A DNA stretch of 28,571 nucleotides from Candidatus Hermodarchaeota archaeon (lineage in GTDB: Archaea > Asgardarchaeota > Lokiarchaeia > Sigyniarchaeales > SOKP01): assembly GCA_048885525.1 (NCBI GenBank), contig JBHLLP010000045.1:1-28571 (forward strand), in the 5' to 3' direction. Positions within the stretch are counted from its first letter, which is position 1. Each line of letters opens with the position of its first letter. The translations under genes were made by a program, and so were the position numbers. The notes beneath the pieces are model-generated. The model did no database searches, was not told where the DNA came from, and saw only the letters and a list, made by a program, of their open reading frames with translations. This document shows, piece after piece, positions 11,484 to 16,302 of this stretch.

Positions 11484-11999
11484 ATGAATAAATTTGGATT
11501 TATCTCCTTAATTCTGACATTTGTTTTATTTTTCCTACAGTTTATACCTTTAGGTTTCTATTTTCAGTTTCAAAATCCTTATGTGAATTCCTATGTAAGA
11601 ATACCCATTCAATTAATTTCATTTCAAAATAACCACTTGTTTTTTTTGGGAGTAATGACAAATGGAGTATTCCAAACCTGGTTTGAAGTTAATTTATTAA
11701 CTGGAGTTTTATTCATTGTGCTTATGTCATTAGCAGCAATTGTTGTATTAGTAGGTTTTTGGAAAGAAAATAAAACTGGAAAGAAGTTAATATTAGTTAA
11801 CTTTATTGTTTTATTGACAATCCTCCTATACCTAATCATTGGAATTCCAATGTTGAGCCAAGAAATTTTTGGAACTCAGATTGACTATTTGGATATATTC
11901 ATATATCTTAATTATGGATTTTATATTTTATTATTGAATTTAATTTTTGCCGCAATAAGCTATTGGAAACATCCAATTGAATTAAAAGGAGGTGCATAA
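11484..11999 (+). CDS. Four-TM membrane protein, unknown function (paralog 1)
   Basis: Four hydrophobic segments with a long first loop. Shares motifs with the next gene. Confidence 0.75.
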   Translation: MNKFGFISLILTFVLFFLQFIPLGFYFQFQNPYVNSYVRIPIQLISFQNNHLFFLGVMTNGVFQTWFEVNLLTGVLFIVLMSLAAIVVLVGFWKENKTGKKLILVNFIVLLTILLYLIIGIPMLSQEIFGTQIDYLDIFIYLNYGFYILLLNLIFAAISYWKHPIELKGGA

Positions 12000-12492
12000 T
12001 ATTACTATAAAAATTGGGATTATCGCGGGAATATTTGCTCTATTATTAGCATTCATAGCTAAGATTCCAATTTACCCTCCAGAGAATTTAGTACTCTCGT
12101 TTAATATTTTTACTATAGATAATTTAGAATATTTTTTTTGGGGTTATTTAGTTAATGGAACTACTGCTTATACAGCTGTCGGGGGAAGTATCTCAGAAGT
12201 TATTATTTCTACAAGCATATGGCTAATGATTTTTTATATTGGATTAAGCTCGATATTTGCTTCAACTAACAAAGCAAAATTGCATAACTCCATAAAATTA
12301 TTCAAAATTAATATCCTACTCTTAAGTATAATTCTGTTAATATTTGGAATCATTATATTCTTTATACTATTAGTGGATTTTGCTTTATTTCTTTATGTAA
12401 TAGGATTTGGATATTATTTTATTATTATAATTTTGATATTAAATGTAACATCGCTAAAAATTTTAAAGCAAGATTCGGTTTTCCTTAATTGA
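11992..12492 (+). CDS. Four-TM membrane protein, unknown function (paralog 2)
   Basis: GTG start overlaps the upstream gene by 8 nt. Four hydrophobic segments, with FFWG..NG and GFGYY motifs matching paralog 1. Confidence 0.72.
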   Translation: MHNITIKIGIIAGIFALLLAFIAKIPIYPPENLVLSFNIFTIDNLEYFFWGYLVNGTTAYTAVGGSISEVIISTSIWLMIFYIGLSSIFASTNKAKLHNSIKLFKINILLLSIILLIFGIIIFFILLVDFALFLYVIGFGYYFIIIILILNVTSLKILKQDSVFLN

Positions 12493-12509: not shown

Positions 12510-12851
12510 TTATTTTAGAAAATCATTTGAATCAAAACGATAGGCGGCTCTAGTTAACCCAACATAATTATCAGATATTTTATAATAAAGCTTGCTGTTT
12601 ACGATCTTTTTTTGCAGATAATTATTTTTTATGTAGTGATTCAATGAAGACATCATAGTCCCAAGCGTGACTGATCCAATATACCCATGTTGCTTTTTTG
12701 TAACTCTTATTAACTCTAATTCTGAGTGCCAATGACCATCAAGTAGAGCAATTAGTATTTCATTTTTTATTGGAGTTTTGATATCCTTTATTTTATTGAA
12801 TAAATGTGAATAACTTGGTTTGTAAAATCTATTTTCATCAAAATTTTCCAT
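12510..12851 (-). CDS. Putative winged-helix protein
   Basis: Helix-helix-helix-hairpin pattern: IKNEILIALLDG-WHSELELIR...TLGTMMSSL...YLQKKIVNSKLYYKI. Confidence 0.55.
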   Translation of the reverse strand: MENFDENRFYKPSYSHLFNKIKDIKTPIKNEILIALLDGHWHSELELIRVTKKQHGYIGSVTLGTMMSSLNHYIKNNYLQKKIVNSKLYYKISDNYVGLTRAAYRFDSNDFLK

Positions 12852-12969
12852 ATTATTTTATCCCTATAAAAGCAGTAGTTATAATATGATTTAATATAGA
12901 GATTTCTTATTTAACAAAATGTAATATCTCAATGTTATTGGGATATTATACAAAATTAAATTGAAAATT

Positions 12970-14091
12970 TTAGAGTAAATTAGGTGGAATACCTTCATTA
13001 AAATATTTGGCACGTGTAATCCAATTCTGGGAAAATTCGGGGATCATAGCGAGTATAGAACCGCCTACCCATACAGAAAACGTTCGTTCCATTGGAGCAA
13101 TAATTCTGATACCTAGATTTTTCCTCTTTCTCCTTGCTAATTCCAATTCTAATTCTTGATACATACGTGATTTCATATTGGGGAACATTGAGGAACCACC
13201 TGAAAGGAAAATATTATTTAGTAAATCTGGGCGAATATTTAAATCACATTCTTCAACTACATCCATAATGGCTATATGTAATGCATCTACTTCTAATTCT
13301 GAAGTAGGTCTGAATAGCAATTCAGGAATGATAAATCTTTCTTTATTAAGTGAGATTGTAGATCCATCAGGAAGTGAATATTCTTTTTCATACTGTTCAA
13401 CTCGTTTAAGATCTTCTTTATAATCTAAAGATACAAAACACGCTTTTTCTTTTAATACTCTTACTAGTTCCCTTCGGATAGAAGAATCAACTGACCAACC
13501 AATTGATTCTAAAGTTTGTTCCATATGGTGGGTTAGAACTCTTCCACCAATATCTAAAATTCTTACAGCATGTTCCAACTTGTATCCTTCATATATAGGG
13601 ACTATTCTGGTGTTACTGTCTCCAATCTCAACGATAAGACCTGTTTGAAAACCGCCTGAATATAAAGTTAGCATTGAATCTAATACGGGATAAAATGCCA
13701 TACACTGATAGTTTTCTAAAAATAACTCAAAAATTTTTTCTAAGTCTTTATATGGAAAAAGTGGATGCATAGCAAATAAGACATTAACAAGGGTAGAATC
13801 TACTCTAAGATTGTAAAAAATATAATCAATGATATTCTGAAAATGTGTCCAATCTACAATTATTCCTTTTTCAATAGGATGGAAGATCTTATATAGTCCA
13901 ATTGATTGAATCTCATCTCCGACATATATCTCGTCTTCACGAGATTTCTTAGATTCATAACTTAAATCTACATTTTGATATTTAGGTTTCCCAACCATCG
14001 TTAGGAAAACTTGAGACGGCGTATCTTCGCCCGCGAATCCAATTTTCGTACTGAACTGTCCAACATCGAGAACAACTGTTAGATTTCCCAT
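12970..14091 (-). CDS. Actin-related protein (divergent Asgard actin family)
   Basis: Colinear with actin over 373 aa: VVLDVG..TKIGFAGED, VGKPK, YVGDE, PIEKG, IVPIYEGY, LDIGGR.LT, KEKACFV, YSLPDG, ERF..PELLF, LSGGSSMFP, IIAPMERTFSVWVGGSILA, WITRAKY. Confidence 0.95.
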   Translation of the reverse strand: MGNLTVVLDVGQFSTKIGFAGEDTPSQVFLTMVGKPKYQNVDLSYESKKSREDEIYVGDEIQSIGLYKIFHPIEKGIIVDWTHFQNIIDYIFYNLRVDSTLVNVLFAMHPLFPYKDLEKIFELFLENYQCMAFYPVLDSMLTLYSGGFQTGLIVEIGDSNTRIVPIYEGYKLEHAVRILDIGGRVLTHHMEQTLESIGWSVDSSIRRELVRVLKEKACFVSLDYKEDLKRVEQYEKEYSLPDGSTISLNKERFIIPELLFRPTSELEVDALHIAIMDVVEECDLNIRPDLLNNIFLSGGSSMFPNMKSRMYQELELELARRKRKNLGIRIIAPMERTFSVWVGGSILAMIPEFSQNWITRAKYFNEGIPPNLL

Positions 14092-14181
14092 GCTTTACTA
14101 TTTTTTAATTTAATTATGAGATATTTTGCCAATACTATTATATCTATATATTGTTTTACTAATTAAAAAAATTCTGTACTT

Positions 14182-14928
14182 CTATCCTAATAGAATTTTT
14201 AATGGAGTATACGTTGTCTCAGGAATAAAACATTCTCCATATTCGGCATTAATTTCATTTCCCCGTAGAATTGCAGTATCCTCAGCCCAATCTAGAACAC
14301 GTTCCAGAACTTCTTTTTGGGATATATAAACTTGATTAAAAATTTTTTTTTTTTCTTCCCAATAATCTTCAATATTCACTGTTACAAATACCGAGCCCTC
14401 AATATATTCGAATTTACACGATGGCGATTCATAGTAATAAACACCCAACGGAGTCCAACTTCTCTTATGACCTCCATATGCTTTACCAGATGAACAGTGA
14501 TATATTGCTTCCCTGGTAATTAATGATAAATTCCGATGTACGCGGTGGAAATCTGAATAATGAGGGATTAGGATTACTTGAGGTTTATAATCCCTTATAA
14601 GATTCGTAATTTGTGAGATTTTAGCTCTTTCAATTTGCATATCGAAGTAATTTAATTGAATAAACTCACAATTTAATATTGATCTTATTGATTTTAATTC
14701 ACCTTCTCTTTGCTGTTGAATAATTTCTTTATCATCATCTCTGGCATATCCTCCTAAGCCCGAAGTAGCAATAACTATAACAATTTCTGCTCCAAATTTT
14801 TGATATTTTAGAATGGTACCTCCACATGACACTAATTCATCATCGGGATGCCCAGCAAAAATCAACATCCGCTTAGGGACAATAATGGGAATATCATCTT
14901 CACATAATAATAAATTTTGATCAGACAT
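14182..14928 (-). CDS. PIG-L/LmbE family N-acetyl-sugar deacetylase
   Basis: AGHPDDELVSCGG metal motif, ATSG, REGE, IRDYKPQVILIP..DFHRVH (HxDH variant), C-terminal YGECF. ATG at 14928 (MSDQNL) preferred; 14967 is possible. Confidence 0.88.
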   Translation of the reverse strand: MSDQNLLLCEDDIPIIVPKRMLIFAGHPDDELVSCGGTILKYQKFGAEIVIVIATSGLGGYARDDDKEIIQQQREGELKSIRSILNCEFIQLNYFDMQIERAKISQITNLIRDYKPQVILIPHYSDFHRVHRNLSLITREAIYHCSSGKAYGGHKRSWTPLGVYYYESPSCKFEYIEGSVFVTVNIEDYWEEKKKIFNQVYISQKEVLERVLDWAEDTAILRGNEINAEYGECFIPETTYTPLKILLG

Positions 14929-15067
14929 ATAAGATAACACTCTAATTAAAATTAAAAATATTATCATATTGTTTTAAATAAAAATAATAGAATTTCTATA
15001 ATTGAACTAAATAAATTGCTAGTTGTCTAAAAAGATATTTGATAAAAAAGAAAAATTAAGAAAGTTC

Positions 15068-15763
15068 TTATTCTCCTCTCATTATTTTCTTTAAACGGTT
15101 CAATTCATCTAACATTTCATCTCGAAGTGAACCTAATCCACCCCCTGTTTTAGGAGCTACTGTGGGAGCAGCAGGAGCACCTCCACCTGGAGGTTTTGGG
15201 AGACTAGCACCTGGGGGTGCAGTTGGTCTTTTTGCAAATGCAGGAGCACTTGGAGGACTTACACTTGGGGGGCCACTGGGGGCTTTAGGTGGTCCACCGA
15301 CGGGAGCTTTTGGAGGAGCACCGCTTGGAGGTAATTTAGGAGCAGGTGGTAAACCAGGGCGTTTAGGTGGTCCTGATGATGGAGCACTAGGCAGCCCCGC
15401 TTTCGGGGCACTAGGTGGTCCTCCACTAATTGGTGGGGCAGGAGCACCAGCAATGGGCGGTGCAGGTACAGATTCAGGAGCTGCAGCACCTCCACCACTG
15501 CTTAATAAAGAGAATAATGTACTTGCCGCAGCAGTTCTAGCTCCTTGACTTGTTGGAACGACTATTTTTTTAGAGGAAGTACTAACAGTTTGAACTTCTT
15601 CAACAACAGAGACTTCTTTCAAATCTTTTTGAGCTTTAGCTAATGATTTAATAAAGTCGTTTATCCCTTTAACAGTCTCTTCTAGATCATCAGCCAGGGA
15701 AGTTAAACCCTTTTTCATAAAATTAATAACACGTTCAATTTTTTTCTGATCTTTTGAAACCAC
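15068..15763 (-). CDS. Coiled-coil + Pro/Ala/Gly-rich protein with C-terminal WH2-like amphipathic helix
   Basis: GTG start with upstream GAGGA. N-terminal heptad helix of about 50 aa, a low-complexity P/A/G/S tract of about 110 aa, and C-terminus GSLRDEMLDELNRLKKIMRGE. Confidence 0.8.
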   Translation of the reverse strand: MVSKDQKKIERVINFMKKGLTSLADDLEETVKGINDFIKSLAKAQKDLKEVSVVEEVQTVSTSSKKIVVPTSQGARTAAASTLFSLLSSGGGAAAPESVPAPPIAGAPAPPISGGPPSAPKAGLPSAPSSGPPKRPGLPPAPKLPPSGAPPKAPVGGPPKAPSGPPSVSPPSAPAFAKRPTAPPGASLPKPPGGGAPAAPTVAPKTGGGLGSLRDEMLDELNRLKKIMRGE

Positions 15764-16035
15764 GTTCTACTCAATTCCTCTAAAATTATTGAAAATTTGA
15801 TTAAAAATAAAATTACTAGTAATAATCTTTATATTTTAATTATATTAATATGTATTTATATTTTTATTCCATTCTTATTTGAATCTATATACCGAAATAT
15901 TACGTAAATCCAAAAAAACGTTAATTATTAAAAAACCTAAACTAATAATATTATATAACATATTTCATTAGTAAGTTTAAAAATTATTAAAAATTCAATT
16001 TTAAGATTGAAATGAATTAAAAAGGTTTGCAAAAA

Positions 16036-16302
16036 ATGCCTAAGCGAGAATTATTCATTAAACGGGTTTATGAAATTGTAAACGAACTTAAAATACCTTT
16101 AATTGACGAAAGAGTATATGATAAGGTTAATTTCAACACTGGAGCAGCTATTGCAACAGTAATTTTCAGATTTGAGGAAGACGAATCGGTTATCCGCGGA
16201 TTTTTAGGATTGGCTGAATATTTTCATACGGTGGTGGTCAAGCGTAAAGACGAATTTTTTATTCCTCATGCCTCTATATTATTCCGTTTGATAAGCGCTT
16301 AA
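16036..16302 (+). CDS. Hypothetical protein (88 aa)
   Basis: Clean ORF with globular alpha/beta composition, followed by a T-tract. ATG at 16036 preferred over TTG at 16027. Confidence 0.7.
   Translation: MPKRELFIKRVYEIVNELKIPLIDERVYDKVNFNTGAAIATVIFRFEEDESVIRGFLGLAEYFHTVVVKRKDEFFIPHASILFRLISA

Follow-up and report, generated by a model that had tools for sequence, protein, structure and literature searches.

A conserved Asgard archaeal protein with a coiled coil, a proline-rich arm and a portable terminal helix, encoded beside an actin paralogue, is a candidate actin adaptor

Asgard actin has so far been thought to be regulated mainly by gelsolins and profilins (bioRxiv 10.1101/2025.11.30.690169), and WH2-like motifs, LVDV and LKDV, have been described in Asgard two-domain gelsolins (PMC9433394; bioRxiv 10.1101/2025.11.30.690169). 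'Ca. Lokiarchaeum ossiferum' encodes Lokiactin and three actin-related proteins (ARPs) whose function is unknown (PMC9834061). The archaeal protein arcadin-2 combines a core, an unstructured and non-conserved linker and a conserved 17-residue C-terminal helix, which on its own binds the hydrophobic groove of crenactin at 31 nM; its gene is located in the crenactin cluster, and the ParR-ParM pair uses the same site (PMC5173319). Here we analyse a stretch of 28,571 nucleotides, referred to as the window in its whole length, from contig JBHLLP010000045.1 (assembly GCA_048885525.1) of a Promethearchaeia (Lokiarchaeia-type) Asgard metagenome-assembled genome (MAG). The window carries a family-level conserved gene array, c2 / PRO / PIG-L / ARP / wHTH, in which the proline-rich protein PRO is encoded upstream of an actin paralogue, here called ARP. 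PRO is a candidate actin adaptor, and probably neither a WH2 protein nor an Arp2/3-type nucleation-promoting factor. It belongs to a family without prior description, encoded beside a member of an already known class of Asgard ARPs.

PRO and its parts are located in the window as follows.

15068 to 15763, minus strand: PRO, 231 amino acids from a GTG start, of an Asgard family without prior description
15614 to 15754, minus strand: PRO residues 4-50, long heptad helix (AlphaFold2 (AF2) model and heptad register)
15500 to 15550, minus strand: PRO residues 72-88, short helix AK.AAS.LF.LLS.G (alignment and low-confidence AF2 helix)
15149 to 15487, minus strand: PRO residues 93-205, disordered Pro/Gly/Ala/Ser/Lys arm, an island rich in guanine and cytosine (GC) (low predicted local distance difference test (pLDDT) values and composition)
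15080 to 15136, minus strand: PRO residues 210-228, near-invariant amphipathic C-terminal helix (alignment and AF2)

Orthologues of PRO are present in 38 of 41 relatives from four families (f1, the family of the window, to f4), and the reading frame is real, as the N- and C-terminal modules are kept in frame in all of them; an antisense Gly-rich open reading frame (ORF) of 128 amino acids over PRO was dismissed as a shadow frame, the PRO frame being the conserved one. The alignment resolves helical residues 5-52, the AK.AAS.LF.LLS.G motif at 74-92, a variable Pro/Gly/Ala/Ser/Lys arm and the C-terminal stretch LR[DE]EMLxELxRLK[KT]IMxG. The N-terminal helix (47 residues) is modelled with pLDDT 76-91, one heptad register places L, I, V, M or F at 11 of 14 a/d positions and its sole sequence similarity in the PDB is to designed coiled coils, such that this helix is a probable oligomerising coiled coil, as far as the model goes. 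The short second helix is predicted with low confidence (pLDDT ~56-62), and A79, A80, L83 and L87 within it are invariant across the four families. Residues 89-209 are disordered in the model, the arm proper showing pLDDT 45-64 and no secondary structure; over its ~115 residues it contains 18% Pro in runs of at most two, 15 PxxP and a net charge of +9, is built of units such as GPPxAP, PPKAP and PPKLPP and differs in length and sequence between orthologues. The C-terminal helix (19 residues), on the contrary, reaches pLDDT 86-92 and is strongly amphipathic (alpha-helical hydrophobic moment 1.5); twelve columns from L213 to G230 are invariant from f1 to f4, while elsewhere the proteins are only 39-46% identical. 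The whole model has a predicted template modelling score of 0.21, so the protein is not globular. An earlier sequence-only reading of the window had described this order of N-terminal coiled-coil helix, Pro-rich linker and conserved end helix, and alignment, model and heptad register uphold it.

PRO has no family match in Pfam or NCBIfam, and searches of Pfam, NCBIfam, PDB sequences and the ESM Atlas found nothing except designed coiled coils, Pro-rich sequences of low complexity and the cluster of PRO itself. An exhaustive profile search over 1.84 billion representatives yielded no more than 75 matches below E 1e-3, of which ~40 are family members or fragments, and all 198 matches of a word-based search are unnamed Promethearchaeota proteins. 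Judged from these searches, PRO is an Asgard-restricted family without prior description; one full-length homologue of the same layout is labelled Odinarchaeia, and a probable orthologue in 'Ca. L. ossiferum' lies at G055:C1:729370-730182. On a contig of 2.1 kb, a predicted protein of 549 amino acids (P0248) has a PRO-family part with a transmembrane segment on its N-terminal side and a TIR domain on its C-terminal side; this may be a true fusion or come from read-through in gene calling. The arm is GC-rich in an AT-rich genome, and contigs of relatives often break there (G010:C128/C37, G100:C194, G121:C23), with PRO matches beginning at contig base 2-4. Because of these breaks, absences of PRO or ARP in MAGs are unreliable, and the joint absence of both in ~12 f1 genomes was dropped as evidence, the two genes being physically linked as well.

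The end helix of PRO also occurs on other carriers. In proteins labelled Sigyn- or Hodarchaeota, two to three copies, with Pro-rich or acidic linkers between them, precede a CPxCG...CCxC domain; one protein with motif and zinc domain begins with a Ras-like domain, and one multipass membrane protein carries the motif at its end, after a Pro-rich tail. The genome of the window itself encodes a second carrier on contig C7 (L064:6853-7344, corresponding to G000:C7:98852-99343), a protein of 163 amino acids with one copy, NFLRDEMINELNNLKELIRNN, followed by the CPxCG...CCxC zinc domain. In the copies outside PRO, the hydrophobic pattern is kept together with the R/E positions and the Gly at the end, but not the KK of LKKI, which is replaced by KR, QR, KE, RR, KA, QE, KH, NR or KG. 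As judged from these copies, other Asgard proteins reuse the end helix, and it is a portable motif.

Several orthologues of the contig C7 carrier within the genus contain in-frame stops. A connection of this carrier to a gelsolin-like gene 3 kb away was rejected, as the proximity holds in the genus only. The same contig encodes, at L064:10144-11277 (G000:C7:102146-103276), a protein of 377 amino acids with a weak gelsolin repeat (16.9 bits, below cut-off) and a C-terminal HeH/LEM-Rho_N-like domain, which is conserved across the order. In the locus labelled Odinarchaeia, the gene upstream of PRO (L048:7045-7626) encodes a protein of similar layout, in which a Pro/Glu-rich linker connects a small domain at the N-terminus with a terminal helix that closes with ELNKILKKLEEE; the assignment of the upstream gene of 193 amino acids in that locus to the zinc-domain family was rejected.

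Next to PRO, the array consists of the following genes.

14182 to 14967, minus strand: PIG-L/LmbE-family deacetylase, intact, 261 amino acids (Pfam PF02585)
12970 to 14091, minus strand: ARP, actin-family paralogue, 373 amino acids (Pfam Actin)
12510 to 12851, minus strand: winged helix-turn-helix (wHTH) protein, 113 amino acids (AF2 topology and Foldseek)
16027 to 16302, plus strand: c2, small, very conserved protein (~88 amino acids when counted from the Met at 16036), next to PRO and divergent from it

The ORF list confirms the four minus-strand genes, with intergenic gaps of 100, 90 and 118 bp in the order PRO, PIG-L, ARP and wHTH, the first of which grows to ~139 bp if the second Met is the start of PIG-L. 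Together with Pfam and the fold matches it bears out the co-oriented foursome of Pro-rich, PIG-L, actin-related and winged-helix genes of the sequence-only reading. For gene order, the match coordinates of PRO and ARP were compared in 121 genomes of the order. Both genes are found in 83 genomes of f1, and in 79 of these (32 in genus g1, 47 in g12-g20) the two share strand and contig, with PRO upstream, a linkage which spans 11 genera; in the remaining four the two genes are on different short contigs. An identical orientation of four genes is expected by chance alone in 1 of 8 cases and is weak by itself, its recurrence in these 79 genomes adding weight. In most f1 genera ~850-1200 bp separate PRO from ARP, which corresponds to the size of PIG-L; six genomes have 2-4.4 kb in between, and 130-500 bp are left in genomes without PIG-L (most of g1 and the whole of g16 and g17). 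The f1 array is part of a larger conserved block of a phosphoribosyltransferase (PRT), c2, PRO, PIG-L, ARP, wHTH, two tetraspan genes, topoisomerase IA and a gene of 1060 amino acids. The tetraspan genes of the window (11484-12492), downstream of the wHTH gene, encode tandem paralogous proteins with four transmembrane segments and occupy the same place in 5 of 12 other f1 loci (L052, L055-L057, L060), not being seen in the other seven. Sharing of c2 and the phosphoribosyltransferase between the window and the locus labelled Odinarchaeia was rejected, with no homology beyond the phosphoribosyl pyrophosphate loop.

Beyond f1, the order c2>PRO>PIG-L is retained in f3 and PIG-L>ARP, with a 16-bp gap, in the f2 genus g5. 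There, ARP closes an operon-like row (L040:6095-13253) of genes which overlap or lie 16 bp apart and encode a Roc/Arf-like GTPase of 474 amino acids, an unknown protein of 330, a weakly HEAT-like protein of 367, unknown proteins of 345 and 193 amino acids, PIG-L and ARP. In the f2 genera g2, g8 and g9, a Ras-family small GTPase (~190 amino acids) is encoded directly upstream of ARP on the same strand (L038:7280-7864, L039:5091-5681, L063), and a Ras-family GTPase gene adjoins PRO in g5; as a link between PRO and ARP, equivalence of the PRO-side GTPase of g5 and the ARP-side GTPase of g2 and g9 was rejected at 32% identity only.

ARP matches Pfam Actin (PF00022) over its full length (294.7 bits, E 1e-87, profile positions 6-401 of 410) and scores ~280 bits against solved eukaryotic and Asgard actins in a PDB sequence search. 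It is 39-41% identical to the conserved Lokiactin of relatives (for example L036:1961-3115), a protein of 384 amino acids which gives a similar E-value against the window ARP in every family and is taken as Lokiactin because such near-equal values fit high conservation. ARP has orthologues of its own, with an identity that falls from 83-92% within the genus and 62-79% within the family to 49-56% in f2, and is for this reason, on sequence grounds, a faster-evolving paralogue and not Lokiactin. In the alignment, the P1 loop of the ARP clade reads D-x-G-Q/E-F/Y-S-T-K, the Q137 position is variable and the H161 position is Arg; the adenine-side SGGSSMFP loop is retained. By our reading in actin numbering, ARP keeps much of the groove, with equivalents of Y143, G146, E167, G168, Y169 and I345-L346. 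That the actin gene is a divergent paralogue, as had been read from the window, agrees with the Lokiactin identity, the separate orthologues and the altered P1 loop, Q137 and H161 positions. The genome (3.58 Mb, 87 contigs, 99.3% complete) contains three actin-family genes, of which the window ARP is the best Pfam match. A tblastn search with the 384-residue protein found no Lokiactin copy in this assembly, though Lokiactin is present in most of the 24 genus relatives searched; its absence here is a matter of an unassembled gene, and the window ARP is the top actin match of the genome by default, because Lokiactin is not in the assembly. Most genus relatives hold at least four actin-family genes, namely Lokiactin, the window type, a ~505-residue and a ~405-residue type. 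In genus relatives (G011:C83:32686-34541, G016:C13:46740-49275, G017:C26:48250-50085) a small gelsolin-domain gene (~182-192 amino acids) is convergent with Lokiactin at a distance of ~0.5-1.1 kb, so that the principal actin has a known type of actin regulator as a linked gene there.

With its coiled coil, flexible basic arm and invariant end helix reused on other carriers, PRO has the anatomy of a putative tethered docking peptide. The coiled coil would bundle several chains to an oligomeric tether, from which the flexible arms would each present the terminal docking helix to one highly conserved partner. The partner favoured here would be an actin-fold protein, either Lokiactin or the ARP encoded nearby, whose hydrophobic groove would take up the helix, and docking would then lead to multivalent recruitment, sequestration or clustering of subunits. 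We give a probability of about one in three to this reading of PRO as an arcadin-2-like multivalent tether docking on Lokiactin or ARP, arcadin-2 having been chosen as the best-fitting known case of a tethered terminal helix. A link between PRO and ARP is supported by their adjacency, at 130-280 bp, where PIG-L is deleted and by the partial pairs which outlive the family in f3 and in g5 of f2. A more far-reaching version, which we consider doubtful, would make PRO the first Asgard actin regulator outside gelsolin and profilin, a multivalent coiled-coil tether with an end helix that plugs the barbed-end groove of Lokiactin and/or ARP; this helix, which recurs in tandem on other Asgard proteins, would be an archaeal counterpart of the WH2/arcadin-2 principle.

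Several observations weigh against actin docking. The gene order of f1 is not specific to PRO and ARP, because the conserved block also carries the phosphoribosyltransferase, the tetraspan pair, topoisomerase IA and the 1060-residue gene. In all 12 genomes of f2, the sister family, PRO and ARP are 44, 70, 100 or 273 kb apart or on different contigs, and PRO has adenylosuccinate synthetase and an Eco57I-like methylase as neighbours; f4 has PRO, while no ARP orthologue was found there, and the neighbours of the PRO homologue labelled Odinarchaeia are unrelated. Conserved gene order, by which the sequence-only reading had proposed to judge the pairing, is thus upheld within f1 (79 of 83 genomes, 11 genera), but breaks down in f2 (adjacent in 0 of 12), in f4 and in the Odinarchaeia-labelled MAG. 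Runs of T5-T6 after the PRO stop codon and of T7 after the PIG-L stop codon, in gaps which are all AT-rich, suggest separate terminators, and the four genes are on this account probably separate transcription units, although T-runs weigh little as terminator evidence in a genome of 28% GC; the caution that the gaps are too loose to prove an operon was justified by the gap sizes and these runs. None of the motif carriers found so far has an actin-binding domain in fusion. Polyproline is reportedly not bound by Loki and Odin profilins (PMC8410842), and the PRO arm has no run above PP.

PIG-L of the window carries the AGHPDDE metal-binding motif and H..H, and matches PF02585 with 78.5 bits at a cut-off of 28.2, a BshB1-like match in NCBIfam being below cut-off. 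The gene lies between PRO and ARP in most f1 genera and is intact in this genome; it is nevertheless decaying in this genus, as four relatives (G008, G014, G016, G018) have one to three in-frame TAA stops and in 18 of 24 it was not found. The wHTH protein has no match in Pfam. Its predicted topology, H-b-H-H-b-b, is of moderate confidence (mean pLDDT 61), Foldseek relates it to BigR/ArsR, TubR, MarR, PadR and Sso10a (probability ~1.0, E ~3e-3, TM-score ~0.5), and the 227 relatives it has in databases are without exception unnamed proteins of Promethearchaeota. All 22 genus relatives with the wHTH gene have it directly after ARP, as do 11 of 12 further f1 loci read, and it was not seen in L062; in f2, a wHTH-like domain is found within large proteins 4-6 kb off ARP. 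The c2 protein, without match in Pfam and the ESM Atlas, is 64-74% identical across families, above the conservation of PRO or ARP; its gene adjoins PRO in f1 and f3, is 3 kb off in g5 of f2 and 24-270 kb off in g2, g8 and g9 of the same family. Even where PRO has moved away in f2, c2 is within 2-20 kb of ARP or the wHTH-like gene.

The sequence-only reading had taken PRO for a WH2-like activator of the WASP/WAVE type, which would form an Arp and activator module with the neighbouring gene. The order of oligomerising helix, Pro-rich region and helix ending LKKI, the position upstream of ARP and the tandem copies of the motif in another family, which recall multi-WH2 nucleators, agree with a WASP/WAVE/VASP-type nucleation-promoting factor. 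A WH2 domain binds G-actin in the cleft between subdomains 1 and 3 and consists of an amphipathic helix of two to three turns, a flexible linker and an extended LKK[TV], with ~6 residues from helix to LKK in WASP, WAVE and WIP. In PRO, only 3 residues separate the last helix hydrophobe L221 from L224 of LKKI, i.e. 3 too few, and LKKIM is predicted inside the one continuous helix 210-228 and not as a helix plus extended segment; moreover, the KK is not conserved in the copies elsewhere. In Pfam searches WH2 matched neither PRO (E<=0.1) nor the C-termini of three orthologues, taken as isolated pieces of 40 residues (E<=10), and PF02205 had no match across the whole genome (E<=1). Past the helix PRO has only 3 more residues (RGE), with no acidic stretch, no Trp and no central region, and has no Pfam match to WH1/EVH1 or VASP_tetra, its coiled coil being N-terminal and not C-terminal as in Ena/VASP. 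ARPC2 (PF04045) and ARPC4 (PF05856) had no match in the genome, in a survey whose control set contained no positive genome and which divergent homologues could escape. Neither the genome nor the controls gave a profilin match in Pfam, which is therefore uninformative. Within the reach of our literature search, no WH2-like elements are described in Asgard archaea outside gelsolins. Membership of PRO in WH2, WASP/WAVE or Ena/VASP is not supported, and the presence of PRO in f4, where no ARP orthologue was found, also counts against the proposed module; that PRO is such a factor and activates the neighbouring Arp is very unlikely. The failed WH2 tests lower the WH2 reading, but lower docking on actin much less. 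The least probable of all the readings regards PRO as a bystander and ARP and wHTH as a pair of filament NTPase and DNA-binding adaptor similar to ParM/ParR or TubZ/TubR. The wHTH gene does stand directly behind ARP in nearly all f1 loci read, and TubR and centromere-binding wHTH proteins are among the top fold matches, but these matches are generic with weak E-values, at which ordinary transcription regulators score alike, ARP is a eukaryote-like actin paralogue and not ParM-like, and the f2 wHTH-like domain belongs to large proteins at a distance from ARP.

Three other explanations concern the partner of PRO and the meaning of its neighbourhood. PRO might be an adaptor unrelated to actin that stays beside ARP only through an unshuffled neighbourhood within one family, which is quite possible, if short of likely. 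The extension of the f1 block to unrelated genes, the scattering of PRO, c2, wHTH-like gene and ARP over 10-270 kb of one f2 region, resembling a decaying ancestral order, the occurrence of PRO without ARP in f4 and with unrelated neighbours in the Odinarchaeia-labelled MAG, and a PIG-L gene in the middle that is dispensable, pseudogenised or deleted in places all fit this view; adjacency and orientation of PRO and ARP, however, outlast flank-changing indels and the removal of PIG-L, and partial pairs persist in two other families. The end helix could also be a MIM1-like ligand of a MIT domain (Vps4 and the endosomal sorting system ESCRT) or of another membrane-remodelling hub, with PRO as an ESCRT-side adaptor. 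An amphipathic helix at the extreme C-terminus behind a Pro-rich linker is reminiscent of ESCRT-III tails, and the core R-L-x-x-[IL] fits part of the MIM1 consensus, which reads (D/E)xxLxxRLxxL(K/R) at the C-terminus. By inspection against this consensus only the second half fits, as the Leu before it is off register by one residue and M stands where the consensus ends in K/R; no ESCRT gene adjoins PRO in any locus read and no Snf7 or MIT match to PRO is present in Pfam, which together make this connection unlikely. About as unlikely is a hetero-association module, in which the copies on PRO, the zinc-domain family and membrane tails pair as short coiled coils, possibly in small-GTPase signalling scaffolds. 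The continuous 4-3 hydrophobic pattern, the tandem copies, the spread over several unrelated carriers, of which one includes a Ras-like domain, and the Ras-family GTPases beside PRO in g5 and ARP in g2, g8 and g9 speak for such pairing. On the other hand, eighteen residues are short for a stable coiled coil, the GTPases on the PRO and ARP sides are, at their low identity, ordinary paralogues in genomes where small GTPases are very abundant, and near-invariance suits a fixed globular partner better.

The tether docking on an actin-fold protein, if true, would represent a new class of archaeal actin-binding element and the first handle on an Asgard ARP; with the groove-plugging version, PRO might have provided a pre-eukaryotic route to templated nucleation or sequestration. 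If actin docking is false, the helix would still be a new portable Asgard docking motif with a receptor worth finding. PRO is conserved, small and easily expressed, has a functional element of peptide size and holds a family-wide place beside ARP.

Compared with known systems, the four actin-family genes in relatives of this genome match the count published for L. ossiferum, with the window gene as one of the non-Lokiactin types, and the present assembly differs in being without Lokiactin. The WH2-like motifs of Asgard gelsolins come from the class of organisms to which PRO belongs as well and are so far the only elements of this kind described in Asgard archaea; they are short linkers between two gelsolin domains, whereas PRO lacks a gelsolin domain and carries its motif as a free-standing helix at the end of the chain. 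WASP/WAVE and Ena/VASP proteins share with PRO an oligomerising or complex-forming helix, a Pro-rich region and, towards the C-terminus, a short amphipathic helix bearing a basic element similar to LKK; unlike these proteins, PRO has no WH2 match, no central/acidic-Trp region, no EVH1/WH1 and no Pro run above two. Arcadin-2 shows no sequence similarity to PRO in PDB sequence searches and relies on a Trp, whereas the end helix of PRO has none; PRO differs further in its Pro-rich basic linker, its coiled-coil N-terminus and its linkage to an actin paralogue in one family only. Clustering with an archaeal actin homologue, as for the arcadin-2 gene, applies to PRO in 79 of 83 genomes of f1 and in 0 of 12 of f2, and in f4 PRO stands without an ARP orthologue. 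As in PRO, the structured N-terminal part of arcadin-2 of Pyrobaculum (PDB 5LY3) is followed by an unstructured linker that is not conserved and by a small C-terminal helix that is.

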